Of a DNA stretch of 64,000 bases, positions 9,771 through 64,000 are shown piece after piece. The stretch's first letter is position 1. The number at the start of each line of letters is the position of its first letter. Both the position numbers and the translations under genes were made by a program. The stretch comes from Chara braunii (Eukaryota > Plantae > Charophyceae), in assembly GCA_003427395.1 (NCBI GenBank), contig BFEA01000008.1, positions 5,201,209 to 5,265,208 on the forward strand, written 5' to 3'. The notes beneath the pieces are model-generated. The model was not told the origin of the DNA. It ran no database searches and saw only the letters and a program-made list of their open reading frames with translations.

Positions 9771-9852
9771 AATGGGGGACTTGCACGAAGAGGACGCATT
9801 GATATGGTTTGCAGTAGGTCCTAGGTCTGCATCTTACGTATGGTGGTCCATA

Positions 9853-13315: not shown

Positions 13316-13400
13316 GTGGTGAGACAGTGAAACCCCGACGAAACAGTCTGTCACAGTCTCTCACTTACCATTCCCCACTCCCTCTCTGCCCATGGTTCAT
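13316..13400 (+). mobile_element. Degenerate copy of the short hammerhead-core element
   Basis: gtgaaaccccgacgaaacagtctgtcacag plus ctctctgcc matches the family at 229-952. The CUGAUGA core is lost. Confidence 0.55.
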
Positions 13401-13950: not shown

Positions 13951-14184
13951 AACTCCAGTTATCCTAAGAAAAACTTCGGAGGGAACCAGCTACTAACGGT
14001 TTGACTAGTCTTTCACCCCTATATCCAGGTCCGGCGAATCGACCTGCATGTCGGTACTGCCACAAGCCTCCACCTGAGTTCCTCTAGCCTCGCCCTATTC
14101 AGGCATAGTTCATCATCTTATGGGTCCCCGCGGAGATGCTCACACTCAAACCTCTCACAGCAGATTGTGGTTGGCAGACAGTGC
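13951..14184 (-). pseudogene. Degenerate fragment of nuclear LSU (25S/28S) rRNA
   Basis: aaacttcggagggaaccagctacta, tagtctttcacccctata and tcaggcatagttcatcatctt are the reverse complement of a conserved LSU segment, with many substitutions. Confidence 0.88.
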
Positions 14185-14944
14185 TCTCACAACTGTGCAA
14201 CTTGGATCAAAGGCAGGGGCAAAACCCGACTCCACCTCAAAAAATAAAATAAAAATAATAATAAAATGAAAAAGGTAGTAGTGTTTCACTTGTGTCGTAA
14301 AACTCCCACCAGTGCAGCTCAAACTCAAGCCTAGGTTCCTACACCTGATAGGTCTACCAAATGAGCTAGGGCCATCGATTCCGAGGTCGGTCTCGGTACC
14401 GACACCAAGACCGAAATTGCTAGTGTGTCGCAGAGAACCGACCGAGGAAAAATAAAAATAAATCAATATTGTGGATACTGGGGGAACGGAGAGGGGGAGG
14501 GACCGCCTCGCACCTTGGTCCTGCCAATCGGGCCCATTATCGGGGCTGGTAGCAACATTAATGGGGATAGCTCCGTCGACCCTCAACCCCTCTATACTTT
14601 CATGTCGCTCCATCGCTCTTTGACATCGGTTACCAGTCTTGATCCCTGAACCTCCCAGTTGAAAATCCGACACTGTAACCCATAGTGCTAGGCCCAAAGT
14701 TGGCATTAGCACTAGCCATCATCCATATGAACAAGTATTACATCGCACGTAGGCCGTCCCAAGCTCCCCAAGGCCAGATCTTGGCTTACCGATTAGATCC
14801 GCGGGCGTTGAACGCCGACACACGTCGCACGAAAGAGCCAGGTGCCTCTCATAACCGCAGCACGCCTTATTCGTCACGCCAAACCGCTCCCATATCGTTT
14901 TAATGTCGAAAACTTAACTCTGATTAAACTGAACTTTGTTTGCC

Positions 14945-15200: not shown

Positions 15201-15590
15201 TTTTTGTAATAACTTGTATCACCGGCGGTCAAACCTAATGTCGGCCATAGCAATGTGGCCTTTGTGCACGCCACTCACGCACGTACTATGGTCAACTATA
15301 CCGATCACATGAAAATTACTTAGTCCTAATTTAAATAAAAACAGAACGTTCGACCGACAAAGTGTCGGCTCTGTAATGTCAAGAAGAAAAATCATGCGCG
15401 CCTCAAAACTGCGTTACAAAAGAAAACAAGTTGCGGCTCGCACGACACACCCAACTTTCACTCCCAATTTTTGAATCAAAGTTTGTTTTGTATCTTGCAA
15501 AAACCAGAGTGGCTACCCTTATAAGCGTATTCGCACCGACATCGGGGTTAGCAGATGTAGGATCCCTCGCTTGGGTTTGAGCCCCAACCA

Positions 15591-17880
15591 AATCTTGTGC
15601 TGGCAGTCAAGGTGGTAGAAAACTTATGGGGAGAAAAAAATATTGGATGGATGATAGAGTTAGCTCTTGCAAAGCCGATGAACTTGATTATTGAACCCGC
15701 CACCATTGAAACAGTAGTGCAATTCGTGGGCGGTCACCTGTGAATGTACTACCTCTTGAATCCAGGAGACCGAAGAGAGCGGGAAGTTCGTTAAATGGTG
15801 CTTCAGATGAGACCTCAATTTGTTGTACGAGATGGTAATTTGTTTGTTCGTGACAATAGGGGACTGCCCAAATAAGTAGTCTTTGGCAATAATTGACAAG
15901 TGGGCGCGGTGACAGCTTTGCATGATGGACCGACTGGGGGTCACAGAGCATGGCAATCCACTTATTATACGACGATGGAGCTGTACTATTGGGAGAGTGT
16001 ATGAGATGGTGCGGCAGTATTGCAAATCCTGTGTACCTTGCTAAAAGGGATCAACCCTTAAGTGTAAGAAGTCGTTATATCCTCGGCATATAACAAAAGT
16101 AGGAGTCGTCGTACACCGGGATCTGCTAATGATGCCTGCAGAGATCGATAGGTTTAATTAGATCCTCGATGCAAGGGATAAACTTACCAGATTTGTTAAT
16201 GGCAAGGTCATTCACACTAACATAACTAGTCTTAGCGAAATGTATCGGAAAGTATTACCTTAGATACCCTTTGGTCGTCAAGTTCGCTATGGATTGCAGC
16301 TCAGAGTTTACGTGGGTAGAAGTAAAGTAGATGTTGACAAAGTTTGAACTAATGGGAAACTACACCACGAAGGTTCATCCAAAGGGAAACGGCCCCATGG
16401 AACGAGGGTACAATACCATCACCAACCTTCTTGCTAAGTGGACTACTAGAAAACCCAATCAATGGTCGAAGTTTTTACGGACTGTATTCTTTGTGAAGAA
16501 CGTGACAATCAAAAGAACGAATGGTTATACTTCAACCACATTGTGGTATGGTTGTCATGCTACGTTCCCAACAACATAAAAAATTCCCACAATTCAATAA
16601 TCATTCTATAGTAAAATTACACTGGCATTCTAACATTTTAATTTCCATTCCATCTTAAAAAATATCATTTCATTTTTGAAAATTTTCGTCTTACTTGAAA
16701 ACTTTCCTTCAAAAGATTTGGGTATGCCTTCTTATTTGAATTGCATGCTAGAGATAGAATGCAAGTCTGAGTGAGTTCATAAAATATTTTAATTGGACTG
16801 TCATTCATCTAAGGACTTTCAGTCATAAATAGGTTAAACCACTAGTACTTTCACCAGTGTTGGGAAATTACGAGGTTTTGCTAGTTCCCGAAAAAATCCG
16901 GGGTGGGACACAAGGTCGACAATGTCCCACAAATCTGAGTTTTATAGTGCCGCGAGTGAAAGAAAAATGAAAAAAAAAAATGTTTTAAAAGGATTTTTTT
17001 TTTTTTTCTCTACTGCAATCCTCCACAGAATGCACCTTACAGGTAAGGCACATTCTGAGTGTTACTGTTTTCTTTTTTTTCTTTGTCGTGTGTTTCTTAC
17101 GAGTCCCCTGCCAATGAGGCAGGAAAAAATCCGTGATCTGCTGAAGTTCTCCGTGATCTGCTCAAGTTCTCCATGAAGTTATGTTTTGTCAAAGGATTGC
17201 AAAGCTCATCACACTCATACTTCCAGTCATTTTCACGACCGGATTTGTGTGTCCATTTTTTTTCCCCTTCTAATCTTTTTTTTGAATCTGACAACTTGGT
17301 CACGGGGCTTAGATGCCCTCACTGAAGGCACACTCATACTGCCACTTCCAATAATGTATACAACTACAATCACAACCGAACTTTTATTTATTTATTTATT
17401 TATTTATTTTTCTCAGGTTCACGGTCGCAACTTTGGTTTTTTTTTCGTGAGAGTACTATAAGGAAAACGGAGTGGTACCCAAGCTCGGCAAACTCGGAGC
17501 GAAGTGAAATTCAGGGTCGACAAAAACAGGCTTGGAGCTACTAGCAGTTTAAACCAATCTAAATTAAAAGATATTTGTTGTAGTAGAATGAAAGTTTAAT
17601 TAAATAATTTAATGAACTCATTCAGACTTTCATTCTATCTTCGACATATAGATGTAGTTGGAAGGGAAAACTCATTTTTAGACAGAAACTTATCAAATAA
17701 AACCAGAAATCTTAGAATTTGATGACATTGGAATGATAATTTTTAAATGTGAAAGGTTTTTTTTTTTAATGGAATGTTTTTTCAACTTTCATTTCTTGTA
17801 GGAATTTTTCTGTTCATTGAGAGTTTCCTAAAAACTAAGAGGCGCAAGGATCTTAAGACCAATATGTCATTTGAAAATTT
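15591..17880 (+). pseudogene. Gypsy integrase remnant interrupted by a TIR element
   Basis: HHCC motif HDGPTGGH...YYW...CKSCVPC at about 15921-16041 and core HPKGNGPMERG. The reading ATFP continues as IESFLKT after 17815. Confidence 0.8.
16573..17814. mobile_element. Non-autonomous DNA element with long imperfect TIRs
   Basis: Ends aacataaaaaattcccacaa and ttgtaggaatttttctgtt. Inner inverted match between 16751-16794 and 17598-17640. It splits the integrase reading. Confidence 0.75.
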
Positions 17881-19984
17881 GTACTGGGCTCAACCCATGT
17901 AGTGGTATTAGCCCACCCCCGTATTATATTTAAAATAACATCGAGTTGTCTGTTGTAGTTCTGTTGTGGTAGACTCTCAAGCCTACATGGTTGCCCTGGC
18001 CCCATGGCTGAAGCTTATATTAATTCTTAACCCATACTCGAGTTGGCGATGGATACATCGCCTATGCTACATACTAACGTTGTCGAGCGCATCGGGAGGG
18101 TCCCACCCCGTTTTGTGCGGTGCCGGACCCTCCCGGCCGCGTCTTGTGCGGTGTCAGACCGATGCGCTCGACAACGCACTCGTCGTTCGTTTGCCTGATA
18201 AAATATTAACCTTATAAACCGCTCGGCCTCCACGACCGATGGGGTTTTAATAGGATAATACTCCTTAATTTTATCGAGTGTCGTAACAAGGCACGCGCCT
18301 AATACTACGTTTAAAACTTCATCGTCTTCCACCACTGAAGTCGGGGTACAGGTTAGGTTATACTAAACTTCCACCTTTGACTTTTGCGATCGAAGGGTAT
18401 TATTACTGATTCTAACAATCTTAGCACGCATCACGAGCGTGCGCATGCACACTAACCCAATTTATTTCTAGATGCACCTCGATCTCAATGGTCGAGGAAA
18501 CCATCTCAAAGAAACGTCCGAAGAGGCACAAAACTCCTTACTTCAGATCGGGTCCATCATGGTCACCGATGTTGTTTCTGTGTTGACAGCAAAAACATAG
18601 GCAAATACCCTTGTAAAGGTATTTGCTATGACGATGCGACTACCCTGAAATCTACAATATACGCCAATTACGAAGGGAGGAATGATGAGAGACAACGTAC
18701 ATAGTGCACAAAATTTTAAGTTTCCTCGCTCAAATAATGTCTGGTTCTACGCTGCGACTTGTACTCACCCCCGTACGAGTACGAGTTGTACTCATTTCTT
18801 TTATGCTACTCGTACTTAAGGCCCCGTACGACTTTTTTTAATTTTTTTTACTGTTTTTTTTTTCTCTCCAATTCTAGTAAAAATCTGCAGATAGTTCTCA
18901 GGCAAATGTTGTTTGTTTTGAGATGTTACAACACATATATTTTTTTTGGAGTTTTTGGATAAGTTTTTTTTTGTTTTTCCCCATACCATACGGGTCGTAT
19001 GGGGGCGTTGTCGGCGCGAATACCCTTACGAGGGTATCCGCCCTGGGTTTTTGCAAGTAACAGAAAATTGTTTGGTTTAAAGTTTAAGTATACTGCGCTA
19101 AGCGCGGCTGCGTCTGTAATTGCGTTGACTAGGTGGTTGACCACAATAGCGAGTGTGTAGGCGCTCAGGTTTAAGGCGCGCGTGATTCTTTTCTGTTGTT
19201 GATCGTAAAGCCGGCCCGGACCTCGGTCGTTTTGCTTGTGATATGATTATTATTTATTTATTTTTTATTAAGCAGGAATTAAGGATATTTTCGATTGATT
19301 GGTACATATTGACCGAGTCGAGCGCGCGTGCGGAAAAACGGCCCGACGACGGCATCAGCAATAACGGTGCGATTTCGTGCGGTGAGAAGGATGTAGTAGG
19401 ATGGCATGCGGGGCCATTATGACATGGTATAAGCAAGTCGGCGTGGGCACTGGGAGCCACGCAACCGGTTTTGTTGGCCCAAAGTGCCGCGCCGCACCGT
19501 CTTGTATGGTACTCTGCGGGCGCTGGTCTCAGGCTTGGGCTTAGCCCTATAGGTTACGACATTGGACTGACACTACGAAGGTTCGGGGATCGAGGCCGAC
19601 AAGCGTCGACGCAGCGGCAACGGAGCATCGAGGAGGGAGCCGATGGGGTTGAGGGCCCGACAGGGCTATCCCCCTCGGATTTTGCTGGCGAGCGTGGCGG
19701 CGGGCCTGCCCCGCGGGACTGGTGAGGTATACGCAGCCCCGCTGATCCNCGACACTATTATGTTTANTTATGTATTGCCTTTCTTTTTNGTTTTATTATT
19801 TTCGGATCCTCGTCGTATCGCGTCCCATTCAGGGACGCGAGGCTGCGATAAAGTCACATGGGGTGTGTTGCATTCGCGGGGGTTGCCTGAAGTGCAATTA
19901 CAAGCTGTTTTCGTGGCTGCGTCGGAGTTGCGCCTCGTCTTGTCTTGGGACGCGGCGAAGTGGGGTGCAGCAGGCCCTAAGGGC

Positions 19985-20045
19985 CTAACTCAGTGGGTAC
20001 ACCCGCGAACTGTTGAAATACAGGTCCGTGTTCGAACCCAGATGA
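19985..20045 (+). other. tRNA-like (SINE-head-like) sequence with A and B boxes
   Basis: taactcagtgggta...gaactgttgaaatacag...gtgttcgaaccc, homologous to 47345-47420. Confidence 0.6.
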
Positions 20046-20163
20046 TGGAACTTGATCTGTAAACTTTATCTGTAAAAACAGGCATTCTAAATTGTCTGGG
20101 ACCGGGGCAGGCTGACCCCGTGACCCCTGTGCTGGGAAAGCCACAGGGCATCGCCCCGGCCAC

Positions 20164-20256
20164 GTCCTTCGGGACATCCGTTAAAATTGGAACAATATAG
20201 AGAAGATTAGCACGGCCCCTGCGCGAGGACGGCCCGTATAAGTGGAAGCAGGCCCG
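20164..20256 (+). pseudogene. U6: U6 snRNA-derived sequence, near full length, diverged
   Basis: gtccttcgggacatccgttaaaattggaacaatatagagaagattagcacggcccctgcgcgagga matches plant U6. ACAGAGA is changed to ATAGAGA and there is no oligo-T terminator. Confidence 0.88.
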
Positions 20257-23200
20257 ACGACCGAATGCTATTGCCCAGCATTCAGTAGCGGTCGGGCTGC
20301 GCAGTTCAGGACGCCAACCTCTGTCGAGAAAGCAGGGAAGCGGGGCAGCAGAGAAACGGGCGCTAACGTTGTGAAGTAGGCAGGGCGAACCTGGTCGTAC
20401 GGGGGTGCCGGGTGCCTGCGCGCTGGCAGAGGGAGCGAGGGAGCGTAGGGCCGGCGGTGAGGTAGCGGGTGACTGGAGTTAGAGCCGCCAACAGTCAAGG
20501 AGGAGACTAGCAGCGGGCGAGGTAGGGGGCAAACGAATCGGGACCGGAACAGCGTCCAGGTACATGCGAGGAAGGAAGGGAGTGAGAGGAGGCGGGTGCA
20601 AAGGCTTTAGAGCTAAGCAGCGCAACAATGAAAGATGGGACGGCAGACGCTTAAAAGGACGGACGGAGAACCGGGGTAGCAAGACACAGGAAGGGAGTCG
20701 GGAGTGAACCCGGATGGGGTTTGAGCCAGGTGCATTCAAACGAAGGGGACAGTGAAGTAGACATGGCGAGGAAAGAGAGTTAGGCGCAGCGAAGGATGTC
20801 GAGTTCGCACGGCCCTTAGCGAGATCGAGTGAAGAAGGAGCCGGACTTGGGGTTTTGGCCCCGGGCGGATTCAATGGCGAAGTGGAAACGGTGGAAGGCG
20901 GAGTGTAGTCGGAGGTAAGAAGGAAACGACGTGCGCGACGCTATGGCGGAGGGAGAAAACGATGGGAGTGAAGAATCGAGATTACACTCGATTCTCGATG
21001 GAATCGAGTGAGAAAAGATGATAGACTAGCGTTTTGGGAGTAGGCGAAATCATTGACAAGGTCAGTTTGGAAAGAAAGTTAGTGAGTAGTGAGTGATTAG
21101 AAGAAAAGTGTGCGCTGGGCGTAGTGGGGAAAGACTACGAAGAGGAGACTGAGAAAAGTGGATGAACCCAGACTAGTTTCAGCGTCAGATCCATTCGCAG
21201 ACTTTGATGGCGGAACAGTGAATATGGCGGGCTATAAAATCCCGTAGTTCGCTCGATCCTTGCCGCAATCGGGCGAACCAGGAGTCGCTCCGGGGGTATT
21301 AGGCCGGGGCGAACGTGATTCTGAAGTTAGATTAGTAAGAAAGTTAGTAGGAGTGGAAGTAAGTAGAGAAAGTTGTGCGCGGGAGGAATCGGGAGCTATG
21401 GGAAAGGAAAGAAGAAGCTAACGAAATGCTCGTTTCGGATCAATCTCGACGAGCAAAGGCTCTATACTAAGGTTTCGGGGGACCGCGAGTCTAATAGTGT
21501 GGTCAGATCTAGTCCTAAGTTGGTAGAATAGAAGATAAGGAAGTATGGAGGTGCGCGGAGATGGTGGGAGGTGAGAGAGGAGAAGAGAGGAAAAGCGATA
21601 TCCCGCCCGTCTGTTGGCGGAACGGGCGTGGGAGAGTGCATGTTAGAGGTTCTCCGGTGCTGTGCTCGTGATGGCGGAAGCGGGTTTGGAAGTTAGTGGT
21701 TAGTGTTTGGGCTGTGAGGGAACGCGCCGGAAGGGGGAGACGTTAGTGTGGTGGTATATCTTTCCCCGTTTCGGACCCCGTTTCGGGGGAAGATTCGTTT
21801 CGCTTTTCCTTTCTTTTTGTTTCAGTATGTCGTTCACTTTTGTGTTCTCGTATGTTCTTGGTATCTACCTTGGAGCCGGTACAATGTTCATTTTGTCAGT
21901 CGGAGTAGCCCCCCCACTGGTGCGCAAGGAAGGAGGAGTAAGGTATAACTCCGGGCTCCAGTAGTAGACACTCGATTTTGCCCATCCCCCGGGGCGAAGT
22001 AGTGGGCGGACGGATGACGACGGCAGTCGGAGTTTTGAAAACTGCACGAATCGTCGCCGGTCGGGATTCTGGTTGGCCAGTGTGATTCCGGCCGCGCTAG
22101 TTTCCCCTCCTTTGGATTGGTGGGATCTCTGCCCCCAGTGCCGCAAAACTGGCCAGGTGCATTGGGGTGGTGAGTGATGGGGAGAGCGAGCGAGAGTACA
22201 TACTTACCTGTTTGACGACGCGTCGGTCACCCCTTCGTCGGGGGCAGCATGTTTATGGTGGTGTGGAGGTCTTCGGAAGCTACAGGAAGGGGAACGTGCA
22301 AGGGAGGCTTGGCAATGTATTTGGTCTGGTGCTACAGCAGGCTTATCCGGCCTTCCTCACCCTTTCTATGGGAGTAGCGGGAAGCAGGTCGCGCCGTTAG
22401 AAACTTATCTGCTGTTTGACTAATGTTCACCTCACGATTGGGGTAGACGACTTGAGAGCGCTGCCCGCTGTATTGACTAGAGTAGCCGAGAGTTAACTGC
22501 GGGCTTACCTATTGACAAGGGCCGGTATATTCTGCAGAATAGGCTGGCTGCGGGCAGGACAAGGAAGAGGGGACTGTTGTTGTGTGTTGGTATTGCGGAC
22601 CGGGCACGTGCTGCGGCTGGTTCTATTGGACCATCGTGGAGTACTTCTGCTGCGTTTGAAGGCAAAAATGGGCTGCAGTGCGGTACTGATCGCACTAAGG
22701 AGAGGTGTGAAGCTAAGGGGAGGTGACAAGGCTGGGCAACTAGAGGGTTAGTGCTGCAAATTAGGATGTTGCCAGGAGGTTGACTGCGGCAAGCTGACTC
22801 CAGAAGGTTGACCAAGCTGTCGGTTGGTCGTCATTGCGGGGGCCTCAGGCGTTGGAAGATAACAAGGCCCTCTCCCGCGAGTCAAAGTGCAACTCTCTTG
22901 TATCTGAGAGTCTCTACCTTCTACTTCTATCCCTTTCTTAATCTAAGTCTAGTCTACTGGTTACGAGAGGAAGGCGGCAAGCAGGATTGCAACCTGTAGG
23001 TCCGCGTCAAGACTCTGTGGGGAGTCCACCCACCGATTGCGGGAGCTTTGCCGGAACCTAGACGAGGTTCTGGAGGCAGGGAATCATCAGGTATACCATC
23101 TCCATCTGTACAACCTACTACTACCCATGTTTGCCTATCTCCCTGTAGTATGATTGCAGTATGCATGTGTTGTCCCTATGGTTTTTGCTTTCTCTTCAAG

Positions 23201-23340
23201 ACATAATCAGACTAAAAGGAAAGAATGTGTGAGAGTGAAGTTCAAGTTCCTTCTTTATTCTGACTGAAAGCAGACAAAGGGATAAACAGGGGGAAGGTGG
23301 GAGGAAGGCAGCTTTGCATGCGTTTGGAAGGGTCAACCAA

Positions 23341-24030
23341 AGCCTGAGCATTGTTTCTACTGTGAATGGCTCAGGGCTATGTTTATTTGGCTGTTTTCTG
23401 AAGGACCAGACATTGTTTCTACTGTGAATGACCTGGTTGCTAAGTTTATTTAGTTCTTTTCTGGAGGACCAGGCATTGTTTCTACTGTGAATGGCCTGTT
23501 TTTTCTTTAATTAACTGTGAGGGTTTGCCTGATTGAAGGGGTTTAAATTTTTGTTTATTCTGAGGGAGGATTTTTTGTCTAAGGCCAAGCATTGTTTCCA
23601 TGGTGAATGGTTTAGCCTGAAAACCACGCACATAAATTAAACTAAGTATACAGGAAAGTACCTTATGTATATTTGCATATGAACTGGCAGTTGGGCATTG
23701 TTTCTACTGTGAATGGTCCAGCGTTAAGTCATACCATTAAGAAAAGAAAAGGAAAAATACAATATATAAATGAAAATAGTCTGGCAAGCTGAACATTGTT
23801 TCTACTGTGAATGGTTCAGTCCCCTGCCCATATTTGCCTTTTCTTTTTGAAAACAAAGTCAGAGAAATACTAAATCTTTAGATATTAAACAGCACAGGGC
23901 GACTAGGCATTGTTTCCATGGCAAATGGCCTAGTTATCTGCCCAAAAGAAGAGAAAAGTAGTTGTGCAACCTGTTCGTGTATATTATAAAGACAAGCTGG
24001 GCATTGTTTCCATGACGAATAGTCCAACTC
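23341..24030 (+). repeat. Array of 8 hairpins with conserved loop CATTGTTTCYAYKGYRAATG and variable, co-varying stems
   Basis: Units begin at about 23341, 23404, 23467, 23582, 23690, 23788, 23901 and 23995. Confidence 0.9.
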
Positions 24031-24310
24031 TATGTCTTATGTAAGATGGGTATAAGGATTCAAGAACTTGAAGATTCACGAACTATTCGTATGGAATGAA
24101 CTTGGGATGGTGAGAGTACTTACATTCGTGGTTTGGTTTGCATGTGACTGAATGATATCGTTAGTTTGTTTGGGTTTATACTATAGGTAGTTGCTTTAGT
24201 TGCTCGCCACGTGCTAGAGTCATAGGAGTTAGTGTCAATTCCTGCATTTTCTGTAATAACTTTTTTTTACTTAGGTCAATTCCTGCATTTTCTGAGATCT
24301 TTTTCTTAGA

Positions 24311-24870
24311 CTTGGATTTGTATAAATCTTGGCAAGCTACTTTTCCTACGGGAAGCGCTGCCGAAATTTCTACAAATCCAAAAAGTTAGTCAACTTTTGA
24401 CTTGTCAAAGTTCAACATGTCTTTTCCATATATCTAGCTTAGTATAAATCTGGAAAGTCTTCTTTTCTAAAGGGAGTGCTGCCCAATTTTTTACTAAATC
24501 AGGGAGTTAGGCAAAATTGGACTTTGATAAGTCAAAGTTATTCTCAAATTTTGGACCTCGCTTTGTATAAATTTTGGGAAAACATTTTTCTAGAAGGAGT
24601 GCTGTCGAAATTTCTGCAAAGCTGAGGAGTTAGTTAAAAATCGTGTCTAAGTTAAACTCAAGTTGTCTTGTGAGTGTAAATCTGACTTAGTATAAATCTG
24701 GGAAGTCTCCCTTTCTAAAGGGAGTACTGCCAAAATTTCTACTAATTCAGAGAGTTAGACAGAATTTGACTTTCCAGAGTTAGAGATTATTTCTGTGTTC
24801 ATATTTGAGCTTATATATATTTTGGAAAGACACTTTTCCTACGGAAAGCGCTGCCGAAATTTTCTTAATT
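24311..24870 (+). repeat. Array of 5 units with a period of about 123 bp, each a hairpin of about 70 nt
   Basis: gtataaat...ggaagcgctgccgaaatttctac is repeated, and the basal stems co-vary. Confidence 0.85.
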
Positions 24871-26688
24871 TAGAGGAGATAGACTATATTTTAACAGGTG
24901 GCGATCCAGGCGATCCGCCCTGAATAGGGGAGATTCTGCAGTTAGTCTACCTTTGGCTTAAGCATTGGCTTAGAGGTAGACTTAGGCTTAGCTTATAGGG
25001 AGATTTTGAGTGAGTATGTATTATGGAGTTGTATTTTTCATACACTAATGATCTTAGCTTGGGGGTTGGTCTGCCGTGTGTTACATGTCTTTTTTATCAT
25101 TTGATTCAAGTTCAGGGCTAGATCCAGCTTCATCCCTTGAGGATCACTTTCTGTTATCATTGATAACAGGTCGGTTGCCGATTTGTCGGTTGCCGATTTG
25201 TCGGTTTACGACTCAATTTCAACTCACCCTTCACACTCAACCTAAAAGGCTTCAGCCCTGGTGAATTTTATTGTTTCATTATGGTTTCACCCGGACTTTT
25301 ATTGAATGGTCATTTAACAAAGGTACTGAGTATTTAATTAAGGTTGGTTGGACAAGAGGTTTTGGGGCTAGCATGACTAAAGCAAGGGGTATGAGTGTCG
25401 AAGGTGGTTGGGGTTGACTCCGTGGAGTGTGTGGGCTGTTGATTTGGTTCGTTGATGTGATTGCAGGTATGTGATGTGAATCAGATTCTGAATTTGGTTG
25501 CCTAAGATCACATATATACGTACTATTGTGAGAGACCCCAGTGAGACCGTGAGAAGTGATCATCACATACTTAACCCTTATATATGTATACATTGGTATA
25601 CTTGGGATGAATGTTTACATGGGTTAAAGAGCCCCCATACTAAAGTCCTACTCAGAAGCTGAGACTGAGGGGCTTAGGGGAGGCCTCTCCGTCTATTTTT
25701 ATTCTTGCTTTTTGATTATTTTTCTTAGTCGGATGTTTGGTCCTGGGCTGGGATTCGAGGTCCTTGTCAAGGACACCCCAAGCCCTAGGCTCTGCAGGGG
25801 AGGGGTTTTCCCTCGCGCAGAGCGTATTTGATTTGCCTACCGAGACACTCAGGTCGAGAGCCGGAGGTGTCGTGGCGGCTGCACAGCTATTCCTTCAGCC
25901 GTGCAATGTTGTGAAGGGTTAGGCCCTCACGACACTTCGAGTCTGACACTTGAGTGTCGTAAGCGGTACTCGGATCCACGAGGGACCGCTTGATTATGGG
26001 CACTCCATAGTACGCCATCATTGCGACTGTTTGCGTACGCCTGCATTGCAAGTCGATATGAGTAGGCTCTGCGTCCGTGCGGTTTTATACTAAGTCTCGC
26101 GCGCAACGCTTACCTGATTTCCTCGTCGGAAAGTTATGGGTCGGCTACCGAGGGGCTAGGAGCGTTGTCGCGTTGTTTGTGTTGTGCCGTTTCGTTTATG
26201 TGTTATTTTGTGTGTATGTGTGTTTGTAAAGTGGAGTGCACGTGGTGTGTGGGATGCGTCCTAGTCGACCGGCGACGAACCACGCTGGGGACCTCAGCTC
26301 CCCAAGATGTAGGTTCGTGTGCGGGTCCGATAGAGGCGTATTACCGCGCGTACCCCCTATGCTACAGCGAATGAGAAACGTCCTCGGCTGGTCCACCTCT
26401 GCGATTGCAACTGATTAGCTTTCGTACTATGGACTGGTAGCTCGGCGGGGATACGCCCACCGAAGGGAGGTGACAGCTCTTGTAAGGTGTAGGTAAGTCG
26501 TGCCTCGCGTAGGCCCTATCCTGTCATAGGGGCTCGCGAGAGGTATGGCTGGCACATTCGACCGGAGCGGCTTAAGGAAGCTCCACATGTATTATTTGCG
26601 ACGAAGGATTTAAACCGACTCCTGCGTGACGCGGCCGGGAGGGTCCTGCGCTGCCCTGGTGCGGTGCCGGACCGATGCGCTCAACAGG

Positions 26689-26706
26689 TGGCGCCGTTGC
26701 CGGGGA
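26689..26706 (+). promoter_or_regulatory. Primer binding site (tRNA-Asp type)
   Basis: TGGCGCCGTTGCCGGGGA lies two nt after an LTR end in CA. Confidence 0.88.
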
Positions 26707-27005
26707 TAACGGAAAGTCTGCCGTTGTCCCTGGTGGAACGACATCCGGGTATGAGAAGTAAATGATAAAAGGCACAAAGGAAGGACGAGAAAGTGACGAG
26801 AGATAATGAATGACTAAGTATAGGTGAGGAAATTTACCTACCAGAGTAAGGGAAGGTATGAAGAACGAACGTGTAGCATTGGATAAAAGTAAGTACTAAG
26901 GGTTAGGTAGGACGGATGGAATAGACCGGTCAAGGTGTAATGCTGAATAAAGGGATATGCTTGTTTTTCTCTTATCAGGGAGCTTGAAGAGAAAGGTCTG
27001 TCAAG

Positions 27006-27158
27006 ATGTCGCAGGGCGGCGGCGCATCGGGTGGTCCCAAGAAGGGCCTGACGCTCGATGACCTCATTGCGATCATTAACCGGCATGAAAGGAACCCGAG
27101 CAATATCCCTAAAGTCGATACCTTTCACTTTTGTGGGAAGAGGGTTTCAGAATGGTTG
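27006..27158 (+). pseudogene. Truncated gag-like N-terminus
   Basis: MSQGGG...LTLDDLIAIINRHERNPSNIPKVDTFHFCGKRVSEWL lies 300 bp after the PBS and is fused to the last 30 bp of the LTR. Confidence 0.6.
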
Positions 27159-28132
27159 GTGCGGTGCCGGACCGATGTGCTCGACAGCATACAGGTTCCC
27201 GTACAGATATTACCTATACGTTTCGTACGGAAAGGCCCCATACACTTACGTTCGGTAACGTAGGTCTGGTTTATAAAAAAAAAAAAAAAAAAAAACTCGC
27301 ATATATAAGAAAGATATCATTGTGTTTGAGATTTTTTTCTTTATTGTTTTTTGTTTGCCAAATAAGTTTTTATCACAGCCAAATGTATATGGTTACCCCT
27401 TATCCCACCTCACCTTACACTTTTCACCCCATTTTGATTATTGTCCTTGGCATGGGATTAGTAGTTTTGAACCCCTCTGAAAGGTAACATATAGCCAAAC
27501 CATGTGGTTTTACATGCCGGTTTCACTGCTTCTAACACTTCAAATCATGCAAAACTTTATGGTTTGGTTATATATTACCTTCTACAGAGTACCAAAACTA
27601 CCAAACCCACGTGAGGGACAAGAAGCAAGATGTGGTCAAAATCGCAAGCTGAGGTTGGGCGGAGGGGAAACCATATACAATTGGTCATGACAAAAACTTA
27701 TTCGACAGACATAATAATAAAAAAATAATATCACACATAATGATATATTTTTCACACATGCAAATTCTTTTATTTTTTTCTATGAAACAAACATTAACTG
27801 AGTGAGAATACATGAATTTTTGTGCACTCCCCTCCCCCCTCCTTCCACACGCGCTGATACCAGCCACTTGTATAGGTGGTTCAAACCACCACCCATACTA
27901 AACCTCGATTTTCAAGCCAATACTTTTTATCATGGGTTTATATAATACTTCAATGAATTCATGACCTTCTAGTACGAAGGTCATGGTCTTCTAAGATTAT
28001 TAAATGCAATAGTGGTTTGGAATAGTGTGTTGCACCAGTTGTTAATGTTTTACTATGATTGTAAACCCTTATGAGCATTATGTTCGTGCTTAAAACATGT
28101 ACACTTATATAAAGAGCCAAATGTGTTATTTC

Positions 28133-31598: not shown

Positions 31599-32568
31599 TG
31601 CAATCAGACTCGGTTTTTCTTCTTCTCTCACACATGCAAACAGATGGCAACTCACACTGGTGCCAAGCGCTCACTCAAAGCTCAGAGGTATGGAAACCGA
31701 GAACACAGTTCAGATGCAAACTCGCTTCAACAGGCTTATGGCGCATCAGCGCCTCTACATCCCAACTCTCGTCACTGTGTCCAACACCACTGTTCGCACA
31801 CACTCAACTCTGGATCACTTGGAATACCCCACACTCGTTCACTGTATCACACACGCGTACACACACTAACACCTAACGCTAGCTATGGCGGCTATGGCCG
31901 CCAACTACTACTAACTATGGCGCACTACTTCTTCAAGCCCACTTCGACCTCGGGCAACCGCAGGCCACCTCGCACAAGACGCTCGGGCAATGCTTCCGCA
32001 TGGCTTACGCGGGAATGAATGAATGGTTGGAAGCTGCCTCTTGATTTCTACTTTTGTAAGTCGTTGGTCTGCCCGTTTCCATCAGGCCCGTGGTGCACAC
32101 AATCCCTCATGGTACTTGTTGACTGTACAAAGTGAGACTGGGACTGGGTACCGCTGACTAAGTGAAATTGGACCCACCACTAGCCCACTGGCCTCTGGTC
32201 TGCTATGTCTAACGTGAGAAGACACTTGAAAGGCCACTTCTGGACCTTCCGAAAGTTTGTGGACTTGGCCTTTCAAGACTGTAGCAGCTACGACCTTGAC
32301 CTTTCAGGACTGTAGCAGCTACGAACTTAACCTTTCAGAACTACTACAACTATGACCCTTATGCAGTTATGACCCCTACTTCGAAATGTCTAAGGTTCAA
32401 AACTCGCCAACTACTCAGCCCTATGACAGACAACTTCCAACTACTAACACAAAGGTCATAGGTTCAAGGCACACAGGGTCGACTTGATACTGTACATAAG
32501 TAAGGTAAGGTGAGGTCTGGGGATCGAGCCCTGGGGTCTGCATCTGTGTCTAGGTGAAAACCGTTTCA
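31599..32568 (-). repeat. 3' LTR
   Basis: TG...CA termini and a direct repeat of 39587-40522. Preceded on the minus strand by the purine tract agagggag (32569-32576). Confidence 0.93.
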
Positions 32569-32687
32569 CTCCCTCTGGCCTAAATTTGAGGCCCTCCGAG
32601 AATACTTCAATCTAAAGCAGGACTTTTTGCTTTCTTATCTCTTTCGTATGCTCGAACTACTTCGGGAGTTGTCTCTCGAAGTTTTCT

Positions 32688-36144: not shown

Positions 36145-36172
36145 GGTCTAGTGACAGGGGCAGTTGCAACCC

Positions 36173-39390: not shown

Positions 39391-39440
<50 letters not shown>

Positions 39441-55838: not shown

Positions 55839-56300
55839 TGTCGAGCGCATCGGCCTCCGTGTGAGCGAGGGCCCTCCCGGCTATGTCACGCTGAAGTTAA
55901 AATGAACAAAATCAGAGACAACTTAGGACGATGCACAATTAGTCCCATTAACCGCCGAGACGGACGCGTTTGCATTGCCCCTTCGTCGCTGTAGCCGGGT
56001 GCGCCAGCTGTACATCCCGGGGTCCCCTACGACAGGATAGGTTCTCGCAGGGCACGTCTTCCCTTCCCTAAGGGGCTGTCACCACCCTTAGGGGCGTATC
56101 CCTACCGAGGTACCGACCCACGTGCGAAAAGTTTTATATGCAGTCGCAGAGGTAGATCAGCCGAGGGCGTTTGCTCGTTCGCAGTAGTATAGATACACTT
56201 GGTTAACGCCAAGTGGACCTGAACGTCGCTCGTTCCTAGGGCACTGACCTCCCAGGTGTCGAACAAACGTCGGTCGACTAGGACGGTCTCAACCAAGCGT
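55839..56300 (-). mobile_element. LTR 3' segment homologous to 26260-26686, with TATA box
   Basis: The reverse complement aligns by eye with 26362-26686, ends in ccgatgcgctcgaca, and has TATAAAA at 56132-56138. Confidence 0.75.
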
Positions 56301-57749
56301 GAAACCCAACATTCATCCTAGTCCCTTTTACACACAATCAAAAAAAAGTTACAATATCCAGATAATTATATCAAAAGAAATCGACCGCAGCCGACACAAA
56401 TACATATATATTCAACCCAAAGTAACATCTAGGAGAATCCAAATCTTAATTTGATACGTCTAATAACACAAGACCAAAAATAATCCAACCTCTTCAGGTC
56501 GAATACCATAAACAATCAACATACAATCGCCAACGAGAAGTTGCATTAATGCAGCCGACAAGGTAGTCGGACTGCCTTAGTTTTGACTTGATGAGACACA
56601 CTGCCAAATTTTTTTTTCCAACTAGAGTCGACCTATGATTGAGCATGCATACGCCTGTCTTCATACATTCTCGATCTTCCTGGATGACATGTTGCTTCGC
56701 GGATGATTCTTGATCAGAGGCATTGCTTGACGTGCTGCATGCCTCTTCCTCTAGGAAGTGGTTACTGGATATTCCTTCCCCTCGCTTGAGCCCGAAGACC
56801 CAGATCTCAGAGGTTGGGCCGTCACCACCGAGTCGGCAAAGTACCACCCCCGACGAGTCGGGTCCACTCCAAGTCGATAGCAGGGCCGGCTCCGAAAGCA
56901 TACGGACCCCCGCCTTGGATGCTTCCTAGAGAAAAGGGAACGCGTTCACCCCAAGTAATTCTCAATTATTCTTATCCCTTCTCGGTTCATGGTAATTTAG
57001 GCGTAAAGAAATTAAATGAGGTAGAGAATGAGAATCACTTGGACAGGCATAGGTATAGAAGGTCATTCCGGTTAAATGCGTAAATCATGGGAAAATGCTA
57101 AGTCCAATTGACTGCATTTCCATTTTATTCGCAAGTTTTCTTTCATGGCACCTGTTGAAATTACTCATTTCATAATTCAGGTACTTTTGTCATGCAGGCA
57201 AGTGAAAGATAGAAACATGACAATCCCTTTCTCCATCCCAAATAGGCAATGTCAATCTCCATAGCAACATCCTCCTACCTACCTACACAACATGCAAAGA
57301 AAACAAGTTCAAAAGAAGATAGTACAATCCCATGCTCAAGTCAGACCTTTTCATTCACATGCATAATTCACACAACTTTCCTCTGCCTTTTCTTTTAAAC
57401 ATTCAAAACAACAAGGTCGAGCAAAGTGTGGTTTCACACAGGTGTGAAGGAAAATCCGAGTCATTCAACTGACCTTGAGTGAAGTTGAAATAGTACACTC
57501 AAGAAGACCGTATGAATTTTTTGCTCTCCTGACGAGAAGGTTGACGTACCCAGTCGTCTCCAAAGTGATCGACACCACTCTCCTGTGATGACCGCCTGCC
57601 GGAACACCCTCTCAGCACCCAATCGCTTTTCAATGCTCAGGCGGCGTTACCCTGTTACCACCACTTCAAAATGAAGACACAGTTTTAACACACCTCCACT
57701 GTGTCCACGCCCCACTTCCACTTAGTGCACAACTATTGTCGCTACTAGC

Positions 57750-57965
57750 GCCGTCACTGCAAAAAAAACGGCAGCGCTTTCGCCGCACCGTCAAGAAACT
57801 AATGCTGCAGTCGTAAGAATTCGGCAGCGCTTCCGCACCGCCACCAAGAAACCAAGTGCCGCCGCTGCAAAATTTCGGCAGCGCTTCCGCACCACCACCA
57901 AGAAAGCAAGCGCCGCTGCCAAGAAACCAAGTGCTGCCGCTGCAAAATTTTGGCAGCACTTCCTT
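57750..57965 (-). repeat. Tandem repeat of about 54 bp containing GGAAGCGCTGCCGAAATTT
   Basis: Four copies of cggcagcgcttcc-like sequence on the + strand. Confidence 0.8.
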
Positions 57966-59088
57966 CCCAAAAACACAGCGGCGCGACCCCCTATACAAAA
58001 AATCGTTGTCGTGAGCCGACCGTCGGGCAACACCTTCCCGTCGAAGCCCTTTGCCGCACGGTTCAGTCCCGCTGCCGCCTCACGGCTACCGCTTCCCCAT
58101 AGCCTGCAGCATAGCACAAAGGTGGGGCAAGGAGCTCCCAACCTCCAGCTATGGCTGCCTCCTCCTTCCTCCAAGTGCCCCTGCAGACGTCCAACACTTC
58201 GCCTCATCACACCAGTAGCCAACCAGCCAGCATCTACTCAAGTAGAATGCCCCAACAGCATTGCCACAAGTGTGAGGCTGCTGGGTGGCAGGCTAGCTTT
58301 TATAGCTGGCTGAAGGCTGAGGGCAGCTGCTTTGCCCCCAGCCAATCTCGGAATAGGGCCTGGCCCTTGATCGACCCTTGATCTAGACCTCGATCAAGGG
58401 CCAGAAAACTGGATGTTCCCCTAGGGGAACCAAGTTCTGAGCCCTGGCAATGCATCTGGCCCTCACCCGCGGCCAGACGCAGCCCAGAAATGGCTGAGTA
58501 CAGCCATTTCTCAGCAGACTGTTGAAACCAACAGTCTGCTGTCAATTCACAGTCCATATGCTTCTAAACTCGCATCTGGACTGAGGCTGCGGCTAGATCC
58601 GCGGCCATTTTTGTTTCCAAACTTCTTCTTCTTCTTCTCTGCCCTGTATCTACGCTAAGGGCCTGACCACATACGTGGCCGTTACTTTTCTCCACACAGG
58701 CCCTTCTACCAAGCCCAAAAGGGCTTCTTTTCCCTTGCAGTACCACGCGCCCGCACCCGACCACAACCAGTGCTAGGTTCGGGCTCTGTAGAGTGTTGCA
58801 GCCCGTTCTCGAAATCGGACAGGCACAGCCGCGACAACCTCAGAAACCAAAAAAAAAAATATAGAATCAAAGTTAAAGAAAAAAGGAACCAAAAGAAAAG
58901 AATGAAACAGACACTTACCTGTTCGTGGTCCCATTGCAGCCACCAGGTAAGTCGCTCCCCTTGTCGCCGTCGGCAGGTAAGGTCTTTTCTCCCTCTCTCT
59001 CTCTCCCACACACCACGACAACCCGAATGTAGCCGCCTTGGGCGGCAGATCCATTCGCCCATCCACAGATGGGCTATCGGGGCTCATC

Positions 59089-59127
59089 CCCCTGATGAGT
59101 CGGTAAAAGTCCGACGAAACAGTCGGG
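59089..59127 (+). ncRNA. Minimal type I hammerhead ribozyme, second family, intact core
   Basis: CCC-CTGATGA-GTCGG-taaaagt-CCGAC-GAAAC-A-GTC-GGG. Confidence 0.82.
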
Positions 59128-59393
59128 CTCAGTCATGCCCCTTTTCCTTTCGCCCGTTCGTCCGAAACGAACGGGCATATAGTTCTAAGTAATAGAGGAA
59201 AAAAAAAAAAAAAAGAATCTAAACAAAATATAAGAAAAGAAAAAAAATCTAACAAAATCTAAAAAAAAGGAAAAGAAAAAACTTGCCTAAATCGTGGCTG
59301 CCCGTTTTAAATGGGCGCCTATCGTTTCACTGGGGACTTTAAGTCCCCAGTCAGTTCAGGACGCGCCAGCTGGCGCGTCGTTTTTTCATTTCT

Positions 59394-59428
<35 letters not shown>

Positions 59429-60833
59429 CGTTGGCGTCAAGCCAACGTTCACCGTCACGTGGCTTTTCAGCCACGTCCTGTTGAGATACAGACCCAAGTT
59501 CGAATCTCGTAAGATTCGACGAAATTGCCCACTTTTTTTTTTTTTTTTTCCCCAAAAAAAAAACAGAAAAAAACTCGGGCCATTTCTCGATTTATGCGAG
59601 TCATCCTTGCCTTGGGGCCATGCCAATCTCGGCGCGACTGCTTTCAGCCGCGCGATCTTACAGATCGCACGACCGAAAATGGTCGCGCCAAAGGCTGGGC
59701 TGCTCCAAAAGGAGCTGGCCCAGTGGTACAGTTAGTCAAGTTTGATCCCCATGTCTGGGAGGTGATAATGTGATACTGGTACCTACTAGGCTAGCTCCTT
59801 CTCATAATATAAAAAGAGCAACCCTTCCATATGAAGGGCTTTTGGTGCCCAGCAGGCCCCTTTCCACCGCCTAGTAGGTTGTGCCTGCTAGCCAGCTTGC
59901 TGCCGTGGCCGACAGGCGGGGTTGGCAGCCGACAGCTTAATGGTTGCCCTACCTAGCCGGCCCCGACGCCTTCGCTCCTGGTCCTCGGCGCAAAAGCCCT
60001 GTGGACCCTGAACTATTCCTCAACGCCACGGTTCTTCCTTACCGCTGCGACCCTTTCTTAGCCCACTTAGGCTCTGAATCGCGCGGCTTAACAGTCGCGC
60101 GACACTATTTTACGTAGAATAGGTCTAATTCTACCGTTCCCATGTCCGCACATACCTGCGGCTTTGACAAAACGAAGCATTACCATTCACATCCGTTACT
60201 TCTAGACGCCATGCGCGTTCCGACTATCGTCCGAAACTCTTAGTCTGTCAGTCATAGGTCAGGTCTGAATAAACATTGGCAACATCAGTCTCATCAAGTC
60301 TCTCAATTCAGCGAGAAGGTCGGACAGCATCCGACGTTGAAAAAACAGGGCAAATACCCTTGTCAGGGCATTTGCCCCGACAACATTCCCGGACCCCATT
60401 GAACGACGTCCCCGTCGTTTACCATCAATATAGAAGTCAGGGTTCTTACAAAATGATTACAATACATAACAATTTTACAATCTGCTTAAACTAAGTTGAA
60501 GCCTAATTCCACTGACAACCACTCAAAAAAAAATTATTTCTTAGAATGGTATCGGAAGCCCTCCGACTAGTTTCAAGCTACATCCATTCAGTTGATACTA
60601 TCATTTATCCAAAAAAAAATAGGATTAACCCCCTGATAGGTCTTTCGAGTCATTATGAACCCCCTGACGGGTCTATCGAATGTATCAACCTCCTGGAGTC
60701 GTTCAGACAAAGTCTGAATAATCAAATATGTATACGTATATATATACATACGTATTACTCAATATCACACATTAACTAAGTAATAATTCGTAATAATTCA
60801 TGTCGCAACCCTTTTCTTTCATGTAAGTTCTTG

Positions 60834-61968: not shown

Positions 61969-62300
61969 TGTCGCGCGCGACTGTCCCACACCCTAGACGC
62001 AAAGTAGTTTTTGGTGTTGGACCTCACGGTCGTGTCACGCAGGAGTCTCTTTTGTCACCTTAACGAAAATACCACTCCGACCGTGCGCGTGTGCTATACC
62101 TCTCGCAACTCCCTACGACAGGTTAGGGATCCCGCAAGGTACAACATACCTCCACCTGCGGGAGTTGTCACCATCTCTTAGGTGGGTGTATCCCTACTGA
62201 GCTACTGACCCACATACGACGGCTTTTATATGCAATCGCAGAGGTAGGCCAGCCGAGGGCGTTTTCTCGATCGTCGTAGCATAGGCATATGCGCGGTAGA
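61969..62300 (-). mobile_element. Third homologous LTR 3' segment, with TATA box
   Basis: Aligns by eye with 26362-26650, ends in gtcgcgcgcgaca on the minus strand, and has TATAAAA at 62224-62230. Confidence 0.72.
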
Positions 62301-63600
62301 ACGCCTTAAGACTGACCCGTTATGTCGAGACCGGAGTGGTAACTCCCCGGACCGACTATCTAACCAGGTCGACTTCTCGGACAGTCTTCCACGCTTAGCT
62401 AACTTAAGACAATGACTCTAAGTTTCCTTTGTTGAACTTATGAAAATGTCATAGTCAAGCCCTTAGTAATCTCTCATTCTTCTCAAAAGAAGCCCCAAAC
62501 AAATGACTTTCTAGGCACCGACTGACCTACTATCTCATTCACAAGTATATATATATATATGTATGTATGTAAATCAGGGGAGCTGACTGAGCAGTGGATC
62601 TCACTTTCACGATTGTCGTGCCCCTTTGCCTGAATTTCCAGAAGATCCCAAACTCAGGAGACAGTACAAATGTTCAACACCTGCGCATATACAGGAAAAA
62701 CACATACACACATACAAATGCAGACACAGAATGCGCTACGAGCGTCAACCTTTAACCCATTCATGACAAGCCACTCACGCCCCAAACCCTTGAAAACAAC
62801 ATTCCTTCATAACCCTGACTCCATTTTACCCCAGCCCCACACATTTTGAAGACTCCTGGGTGTGATTTGGACAATGTAGGCATAGATACAGGGGGAAGAT
62901 TTATCTGTTCCTTTCTTAGGTCTTGTCTTAGGTGTGGGTGCCAAACCATGGGTGGAAGTTGAGTCGGAGTTCTACCGACCTGTTATCCAGGGATAACAGA
63001 ATTGTTGTTCTTACGGATTCCCCCGTAAGTCCTCCGAAGTGTCGAAACCTGTAGACACAATACAGTCCAAGAGAATCTTAACATCCCTCTTCCTAACTGA
63101 GATCTAGAAAGTTCCTTCTTGACTCTGTGTCCTTTGTCTGACTCCTACTATTCTTAGCTAATTGTTTGGGCTGTTGCCCACTCCGCTTCAGGTAGTGAAT
63201 AATAATTCACTCCCGTTTTACTGTCACGATAATTCTCCATACTCCTTTTCACTATCTCATTCTTATCCCTTTTGAGACTATCCTATCTGAGGTCCCTTTC
63301 CTTCTCCCAACACACATGATCACATCATCAATCCAGCTTGTGGAAAGAATCTCATGGAAAGGAATCAGATGAATGGATAGTCTTTCTCTGAGGCAAGATC
63401 TCACTTCTCCCCTTTCAGTAGAATCAGAGATGGTTAGTTAGGACTCAACAATGCAGATTGTGGAGAAAGTTAGTGGTGGTATGGCAGACCATTCAGGATA
63501 TATCCATCTGTTACTGGAGCTTTGTTTGATAAAGGCAATCTTGTGGGTCTTGGCCACTGCGTGCCAAGCACATTTAGCGGTAGACTTATCCTATGGCTAG

Positions 63601-64000
63601 CCACTGATAAGGCAGGTGTCCTTGAAACCTCGCTACTTCTTATATCGGATTAGTCACTGATAAGACAGGATTCCCCTGCTACTCTTATCACTGACTAACC
63701 CTCAATAAGGCGGGTGCCCAAGGATCCTTGCTACTCTTATCACTGACTAAGTTCCAGGATGTTTATTGATAAGGCATGTGTCCTTGAAACCTCACAACTC
63801 TTATATCAGACTAGTCATTGATAAGACAGGATTCCCCTGCTACTCTTAACATTGGCTAGCCCTCAATAAGGCGGGTGTCCAAGGGTCCTTGCTTACTCTT
63901 ACCACTGAAAAGAATGTTAGGTTTAATCAGTGATAAGGCAGGTGTCCTTGAAACCTCACAACTCTTATATAAAACTGGTCACTGATAAGACAGGATTCCC
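63601..64000 (-). repeat. Higher-order hairpin array: three subunits per period of about 163 bp, running off the window
   Basis: gataagrcagg...cctgctactcttatc subunits, with periods starting at 63606, 63768 and 63932. Confidence 0.85.

Follow-up and report, generated by a model that had tools for sequence, protein, structure and literature searches.

The stretch analysed here, hereafter the window, comprises 64,000 nucleotides of contig BFEA01000008.1 from the Chara braunii assembly GCA_003427395.1 (positions 5,201,209 to 5,265,208, forward strand). It contains a very long non-coding region that is the end repeat (long terminal repeat, LTR) of an internally deleted Ty3/Gypsy element, most likely of Chara, and within this LTR lie two tandem arrays of hairpins that form the main subject of this work. 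The copy under study consists of the LTR, a primer binding site (PBS), a 300-nt leader and the first 50 codons of gag, at which point a deletion leads into the final 30 bp of another LTR (Table 1). The picture of the family was built on the window, the outside locus L001 (the sole locus from a metagenome scan), one DNA run, three RNA runs and gene models.

Table 1. Features of the studied copy and its relatives, in window positions (PPT, polypurine tract; SINE, short interspersed nuclear element; snRNA, small nuclear RNA)
Feature	Position	Strand	Remarks
LTR of the studied copy, 7,678 bp, TGTCG start, CAACA end	19009..26686	+	start motif, and end before PBS
Conserved LTR start with short hairpin	19009..19058	+	left flank GCGT (NCGN target, or end of PPT-like G run)
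tRNA-like A/B-box piece (SINE-head-like), without cloverleaf	19981..20045	+	at +973 in the LTR
U6 snRNA pseudogene, altered ACAGAGA box, no terminal U run	20164..20262	+	Rfam RF00026, 63.9 bits, gathering score 44
TATA-box candidate	21231..21239	+	only other GCTATAAAA in the window at the matching offset of the second LTR; putative function
Start of high-copy unit and peak of sense poly(A) RNA from relatives	22872..23103	+	candidate R region or first exon; donor-like GT at 23091
Array 1: eight hairpins, fixed 20-nt upper part, covarying lower stem	23342..24029	+	spacing 62-116 nt
Array 2: five hairpins of about 70 nt in 123-bp units	24311..24875	+	3'-arm 19-mer common to the array of the second LTR
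Conserved structured terminal module	26257..26570	+	two complementary hairpin loops (possible kissing pair)
PBS, tRNA-Asp type	26689..26707	+	19/19 identical to PBS in accessible part of PMC2844528
Splice-acceptor-like pyrimidine tract and AG (candidate)	26962..26978	+	28 nt ahead of gag ATG; from sequence
gag, initial 50 codons, truncated by deletion	27006..27155	+	37 Chara braunii matches
Downstream (second) LTR of the studied copy, final 30 bp	27157..27186	+	shared LTR end motif; right flank GCAT
Scrambled LTR remnant, separate (inverted LTR end, forward LTR end, inverted LTR start)	18081..18633	-	outside the 19009 LTR
Second LTR of the window, related subfamily, 4,544 bp	55839..60382	-	start motif, U6 3' half, inverted tRNA-like piece, TATA at +2079, 54-bp hairpin array, module, end
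Third LTR of the window, 3' part	61969..64000	-	161-bp array and terminal module
U6/tRNA-like pairs	20164-20262 with 19981-20045; 47075-47183 with 47346-47419; 59569-59630 with 59458-59510

Identity and extent of the element

The copy has ends of the Ty3/Gypsy type, that is TG...CA termini with a short inverted repeat and a PBS directly after the LTR. A first-pass annotation, made from the letters alone, had recognised a clear LTR end with PBS and proposed a Gypsy lineage, and both hold. Position 26686 is followed by GG and then by a PBS identical to the one printed for FIDEL (accessible part of PMC2844528), and the gag fragment found 37 protein matches among 42 candidates, every one of them named Chara braunii gag or gag-pol (best identity 90%). 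The Gypsy domain order of protease, reverse transcriptase (RT), RNase H and integrase is complete in three of four related Chara proteins, the fourth having RT, RNase H and integrase without a protease match; neither a second RNase H family nor a chromodomain was found in these four, which as gene models may be incomplete. For clade placement, the named matches to the RT query were all from Chara and the atlas matches were to generic RT families only. The viral scan gave no match to the element and the prokaryote scan two bacterial matches, which were taken as chance. Locus L001, which matches the window at 61938-61736, has no long open reading frame (ORF) in the 890 bp past its PBS, and the gene models P0003, P0016 and P0022 of the family end, after the integrase, in an extra ORF that is a second gag-like one.

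The LTR end had also been described as preceded by up to 8.6 kb without a credible ORF. The lack of coding signal stands, since the longest ATG-initiated ORF in 19009-26686 has 139 aa against a shuffled median of 138.5 and 100 of 200 shuffles reached at least that length; the extent has to be shortened to 7.7 kb, because the LTR starts at 19009. A start at 18081 was rejected, the segment 18081-18633 being a scrambled remnant of the same lineage. The start motif is shared by four loci (19009 on the plus strand; 60382, 15541 and 18633 on the minus strand), and in the Chara gene model P0168 the RT is interrupted by sequence that matches the window from 19007 over 17/17 residues. As this RT is cut at exactly the 19009-type start, 19009 is the true terminus of a mobile unit. 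At the other side, a common 15-nt motif marks LTR 3' ends at 18173, 26686 and 27186 (+) and at 55839 and 18081 (-), with a diverged end at 61969. We infer that 19009 and 26686 belong to one family-typical LTR.

The flanks of the termini are NCGN (six) or its CpG-decay product TG/CA (three) in 9/9 cases, against background dinucleotide frequencies of 0.044 and 0.17; leaving out the palindromic twin and the flank of 19009, CG is found in 4/7 (p about 1e-4). For the studied copy, whose downstream LTR is known from 30 bp, the flanks read GCGT and GCAT, and 5-bp flanks do not match. A 93-bp unit (18081-18173) is made of two outward-facing LTR 3' ends with an 18-nt perfect inverted repeat, a fold z of -5.9 and flanks ACGT/ACGC, possibly a template-switch product or a minimal mobile derivative. 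A further LTR start (15541-13800, minus strand) is inserted beside an integrase remnant and carries a 136-bp tandem pair, a weak tRNA-like piece and a large-subunit (LSU) rRNA fragment at 13986-14318.

Read depth of DNA and RNA, which covers 20320-27260, divides the LTR into two parts. Summed DNA contig depth, which is not copy number and is used here only as a roughly thousand-fold contrast, amounts to 16-184 in ten bins of 20320-22639, a part near single-copy in the DNA run, then to 1,502 in the next bin and to 20,000-648,000 in 17/17 bins of 22872-26815. Both arrays, the terminal module and the LTR end are one continuous, very abundant unit of at least 3.8 kb, and the continuous high depth means that the arrays are not unrelated nested insertions, a possibility the first-pass annotation had raised. 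Contig joints add or drop whole array units (similar units can also cross-map), contig loose ends at 22935-22965 run on into related sequence, and no further LTR start motif was found inside 19009-26686. The second LTR is colinear with the 19009 LTR for the start, U6 piece, TATA box, array motif, module and end, while most of the sequence does not align.

These data leave room for a serious, if somewhat less favoured, possibility that concerns length only and is compatible with any role of the arrays: the 7.7-kb LTR may be a local chimera or hold about 2 kb of extra DNA, with the family LTR measuring about 4.5-5.7 kb. In a chimera, the 3' LTR start and the U3 would come from an older element and the R-U5 from an abundant one. 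The low depth of 20320-22639 fits this, as do a contig that joins 21006 to 22965 (its short side having just 21 letters), degenerate internal duplications at 20763-21488, the 4,544-bp length of the second LTR, and a PPT-like run before 19009 together with an older integrase remnant, located shortly upstream in the same orientation (15573-17884) and 28-42% identical to six proteins whose gag matches the studied copy. Against it, the GCGT/GCAT flanks fit a 4-bp target duplication with one CpG change, the 19009-type start is found elsewhere as a 5' end, reads that exit the high-copy unit upstream enter related sequence with no new TG terminus, and the low-copy part is not CpG-depleted. Two large inverted-repeat insertions resembling miniature inverted-repeat transposable elements lie at 27281-27779 and 16645-17756, the latter between two pieces of the integrase remnant.

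Conservation of structure in the arrays and the terminal module

The two different hairpin arrays that had been annotated are present, with eight units in array 1 and five in array 2. With the structure of array 1 set by hand from the same sequences, 88 of 96 stem cells are paired and 14 double changes occur, and none of 500 shuffles was as high on either measure; the number of pairs with a double change and the number of pair types were not above shuffles (230/500 and 438/500). When stems were let decay neutrally from a perfect stem, the observed pairing was reached in 0/2,000 runs under each of two tree shapes. The 20-nt core holds 13 positions invariant across the eight units, and pairwise difference rises from 0.145 in the core to 0.54 in the stems and 0.69 in the flanks, with the stems still paired. 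The double changes fall into conflicting groups of units, so that several independent events are needed to explain them. In array 2, eight of 28 pairs show a double change across the five units, and the pairing was reached in 1/1,500 and 0/1,500 neutral simulations under the two tree shapes; the Watson-Crick share alone was reached more easily (382/1,500 with a star tree, 12/1,500 with the other). The evidence supports that pairing in both arrays is kept by selection, beyond neutral decay.

It seems rather improbable that the arrays lack a selected role. Their hairpin units would then have arisen and multiplied through template switches in reverse transcription, a process that also repairs palindromes, and a short motif would have been homogenised by recombination. 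Array types do differ among subfamilies, illegitimate recombination or abnormal strand transfer has been proposed for Ogre arrays (accessible part of PMC7004042), and both the star-tree result for array 2 and the lack of an unbiased G-U strand signal in arrays 1 and 2 are in keeping with such an origin. What speaks against it is array 1, in which conservation is highest in the loop, stems and spacers have diverged and the double changes group inconsistently. As the neutral-decay simulation has no palindrome-repair step, it does no more than weaken this explanation.

The G-U pairs of each array had been read as favouring the strand of the nearest LTR end. Counting them on sense-derived structures was rejected as circular, as the bias vanishes in arrays 1 and 2 when the structure is derived on the other strand (G-U:A-C of 5:5 and 12:14, respectively); the lower stem of array 1 alone gives 8:5 (p = 0.29).

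Searches with the array models found no units of array 1 elsewhere in the window or in L001, and no further units of either array there apart from a single hit at E = 0.65 and echoes of array 2 in antisense. The second LTR repeats the 3'-arm motif of array 2 as an identical 19-mer within its 54-bp array, where the stem is shorter (9 bp), and the third LTR has an array with a different 161-bp unit. Subfamilies have different arrays at much the same distance from the LTR end, and the earlier term "interchangeable" appears a fair description of them. A further array (61310-60830) is not part of the second LTR but closely precedes its start; eight of its units that were aligned behave alike (0/1,500 neutral runs), and it folds at -13.7 kcal/mol in sense against -4.6 in antisense. 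More broadly, 60830-61500 (minus strand) holds about ten multi-stem hairpins with the clearest sense-strand folding of all arrays and an assembly gap inside.

For array 2, and possibly array 1, we considered a cluster of small-RNA precursors, employed by the element as decoys or to counter silencing, which we judge quite improbable. The units of array 2 are imperfect hairpins with fold z down to -6.0 and, in 3/5 units, a minimal folding free energy index of 0.93-1.04, and the 19-mer of their 3' arm is unchanged in the second LTR. The 9-bp stem on which that motif sits is, however, too short for a precursor, the hairpins of array 1 measure under 40 nt, and the best match to an Rfam microRNA (miRNA) family reaches only E = 0.77. 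Rfam matches to miRNAs and small nucleolar RNAs below gathering scores were disregarded.

The terminal module recurs on the minus strand at 56285-55987 and 62319-62072, with arrays about 1.3-1.7 kb upstream, much as previously noted. Across four copies it is paired in 95% of 240 cells with eight double-changed pairs (9/500 shuffles as high), and it folds at -92 kcal/mol in sense against -55 in antisense; sense folding is clearly better only for this module and for the array at 61310-60830. The putative kissing loop assigned to it is complementary in 4/4 copies, but compensatory change is missing, with 3/4 pairs invariant and none changed on both sides. The last 430 bp are the most conserved and most abundant part of the LTR.

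Transcription and a possible role for the arrays

A candidate TATA box stands at about +2.1 to +2.2 kb in two LTRs that cannot be aligned. In the RNA runs X6 and X8 the sole peak falls at 22872-23103, with first mates on the minus strand (19.3 versus 1.5 and 50 versus 0.2) and a height 17- and 36-fold above the mean for the rest of the high-copy unit. Over the array bins, where depth is low, first mates are again mostly on minus (6.5 versus 0.6 in X6, 5.1 versus 1.2 in X8). Provided that the libraries follow the usual stranded protocol, first mates on minus denote sense RNA. We therefore lean towards an R region near 22.9-23.1 kb, and a location of the arrays in R-U5 is favoured over U3, since the TATA position and the RNA peak both point that way; the U3 or 3' untranslated region (UTR) placement of the first-pass annotation is unproven. 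The RNA peak stops at a donor-like GT (23091); the drop there could alternatively reflect polyadenylation or expressed subfamilies that continue with other sequence.

Placement in U3 is unlikely but deserves consideration. The terminal module would then hold the promoter, some 290 bp short of the LTR end, U3 would span about 7 kb, and the arrays would lie at the 3' end of the genomic RNA, serving packaging, localisation or stability. TATAAAA is present in 3/4 module copies, the last 430 bp are conserved and abundant as described, a short leader would remove the problem of upstream AUG triplets, and variable arrays are known from Ogre/Tat 3' UTRs (accessible part of PMC7004042). On the other hand, that TATA is absent from the studied copy and a contig variant counted 66 times has other letters there, the TATAAAA stretch forms part of a hairpin loop in a structure that folds much better in sense, and poly(A) RNA of the module is low and falls on both strands although its DNA depth is 7-fold above that of 22872-23103.

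Returning to the R-U5 placement, 86 AUG triplets precede gag in a leader that begins at the TATA box and 68 in one from 22900, so that the leader would hardly be scannable and translation of gag would need either splicing or a transcript that begins close to the PBS. Family contigs have a pyrimidine tract ending in AG just before 26230, and the DNA over the arrays, between the donor-like and acceptor-like sites, is T-rich with 34-39% GC.

The reading we prefer, to which we assign roughly even odds (about 0.5), is that the two covarying arrays act in cis as repeated protein docking sites, through which the element's unspliced full-length RNA would be singled out for export and for packaging. 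With the TATA box at about +2.2 kb, transcription would begin further downstream, placing the arrays in an R-U5 leader of 3.6-5.4 kb. The translated mRNA would be spliced, with the donor-like GT at 23091 and the acceptor-like AG at 26978 as candidate sites, so that arrays, terminal module and PBS would be retained in unspliced RNA only. Hairpins that carry one fixed loop on interchangeable stems, in five to eight repeats, could form a cooperative platform for Gag/nucleocapsid or a host export factor, and strand transfers in reverse transcription may change unit number and array type. The proposal draws on analogies that are functional only. In the accessible parts of the sources, BARE1 has separate translated and packaged RNA pools (PMC3735527), four copies of constitutive transport elements, which mediate export, outperform one (PMC4829213), and rice Retrosat2 has a 3.2-kb LTR with a 2-kb R (PMC3485330).

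Several observations weigh against this proposal. The covariation comes from just eight and five paralogous units of one copy, the strand of arrays 1 and 2 is not settled by G-U bias, and the LTR may be recombinant, given its near single-copy upstream part, the older integrase remnant and the PPT-like G run before 19009. Judged by the TATAAAA of the module copies, the arrays would belong to U3. There are few RNA reads, of which no more than 8/178 in X6 and 18/327 in X8 are at least 95% alike, and they therefore derive from relatives. Run X7, with 16-29 times more reads than the other runs and reads on both strands, is more antisense than sense over the arrays (338 versus 138) and tracks DNA depth (Spearman 0.88). 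No spliced RNA joint is found among the 15 joints listed of 231, and 26816-27047 is free of reads in X6 and X8, which means that splicing to the gag exon is not seen here. RNA loose ends at 23083 yielded short motifs without a convincing splice partner in the window or L001, and their consensus, with an agreement of just 0.52-0.64, may reflect subfamily divergence. Nor is the polycistronic RNA scaffold envisaged earlier borne out, as there is no sign of separately processed RNAs, no sharp RNA start or end in the read depth over 20320-27260, and low poly(A) RNA from the arrays in two of three runs.

The tRNA-like piece and the U6 copy look like pseudogene passengers about 1 kb inside the LTR, and were most likely captured in a fast-changing U3. 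The former had been taken for a tRNA-like head, a description that does not survive its position inside the LTR, the absence of tRNA genes in ARAGORN (0) and a fold z of -0.22. The U6 copy is genuinely present; as a working module it finds no support, in view of its changed ACAGAGA box and missing U run, and the segment just downstream (20320-22639) is near single-copy. Each of the three U6 copies in the window has one of the three clear tRNA-like copies no more than 170 bp away, with the arrangement differing from pair to pair, and two of the three pairs sit about 0.75-1.25 kb inside an LTR start. The LTR starting at 15541 has its LSU rRNA piece at +1224, with a weak tRNA-like match (E = 0.56) ahead of it. 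A composite repeat may lie behind the link between U6 and tRNA-like pieces, or else a host U6 locus helped by a tRNA-like piece. Within the second LTR, in antisense, lies a hammerhead ribozyme-like motif (59071-59125, plus strand, E = 8e-5) that is part of a dispersed repeat with relatives at 296-343, 619-658, 827-889 and 13317-13358.

At long odds, these elements might be combined into a picture of a lineage with LTRs of 4.5-7.7 kb in which a multi-kb R-U5 would be an intron whose swappable same-loop arrays label the unspliced genome, while the Pol III boxes that U3 would repeatedly capture, along with U6 or rRNA pieces, would give the packaged RNA pool a second promoter. If this were true, the first DNA strand in such a lineage would run 3.6-5.4 kb before strand transfer.

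Comparison with known elements and other features of the window

In order to place the element among known systems we compared it with published groups, the cited papers being represented by their accessible parts. The OTA non-chromoviruses (Athila, Tat, Ogre; PMC6317226) are alike in their very long LTRs, large non-coding regions with tandem arrays and lack of a chromodomain; their LTRs reach about 5 kb, with a survey limit of 6 kb, compared to 7.7 kb in the Chara copy, and the accessible part reports no covarying RNA structure for their arrays, whereas the Chara arrays covary. Athila, for which the comparison literature includes ATHILAfinder (10.64898/2026.03.20.713144, in part), shares the tRNA-Asp/Asn PBS, yet has a 5-bp target duplication without sequence preference where the Chara element has 4-bp NCGN. 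That 4-bp NCGN preference, called unique to Phygy of Physcomitrella in the same survey (PMC6317226), is shared by the Chara element. Phygy, however, has a tRNA-Trp PBS and is compact at 7.7-10 kb in all (PMC6317226), whereas in Chara the LTR alone is that long and the PBS is of Asp type. Tat/Ogre possess an additional (archaeal-type) RNase H, not found in the four Chara gene models scanned. The hypervariable arrays of Ogre/Tat 3' UTRs are similarly short and vary in unit sequence and length by subfamily (PMC7004042), and the array at 61310-60830 occupies their position; secondary structure is unmentioned in the accessible part of that paper, whereas Chara arrays 1 and 2 lie inside the LTR and keep their hairpin. 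The TRIMp3 elements (Cassandra, Helenus, Ajax; PMC10886601) likewise have a small-RNA-derived, Pol III promoter-like piece in the LTR. They are non-coding and 0.3-1.3 kb long (PMC10886601), in contrast to Chara LTRs of 7,678 and 4,544 bp in a gag-bearing family, with pieces that include U6 and have no fixed orientation.

Judged by its sequence, the element appears to behave as a non-chromovirus with expanded non-coding DNA that fails a defining feature each of Athila, Phygy, Tat/Ogre and TRIMp3. Large retrotransposon derivatives (LARDs) combine long LTRs with a non-coding internal domain; the Chara copy has gag, and L001 is without a long ORF in the 890 bp after its PBS. We found no account of the Chara family, of covarying hairpin arrays in plant LTRs or of U6 in an LTR in the literature searched, outside of which fell most subscription papers, and the Chara genome supplement or Repbase may describe the family. 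Long LTRs, tandem arrays and small-RNA pieces in LTRs are already in print; covarying arrays in so long an LTR are new as far as that literature goes.

The non-coding arrays of large plant retrotransposons are usually seen as by-products and as seeds of satellite DNA. Pairing kept against neutral decay makes the Chara arrays candidate RNA signals, with a 40-nt hairpin and a fixed loop, and to our knowledge little is known about how plant LTR elements choose RNA for packaging. An LTR above 6 kb exceeds the limits of the standard plant survey (accessible part of PMC6317226), and an Athila-type primer together with a Phygy-type target in one lineage bears on the classification of non-chromoviruses in algal relatives of land plants.

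Among the remaining features of the window, a decayed Penelope-like element (4692-10513) has a weak GIY-YIG match (E = 0.002) ahead of RT-like sequence, and direct terminal repeats in which hammerhead-like motifs were recognised by eye. A decayed Gypsy element of another lineage lies at 31599-40520 on the minus strand, with two 970-bp LTRs 88% alike and, by eye, a chromodomain-like tail. At 11690-11727, inside a 101-bp duplication, a back-to-back adapter-like junction is probably an assembly artefact; we take it to be a Nextera mate-pair junction. Finally, an intact ORF with hexapeptide repeats (50169-51293, minus strand; Pfam Hexapep, E = 7e-18) presumably encodes a protein resembling a gamma carbonic anhydrase-like subunit.

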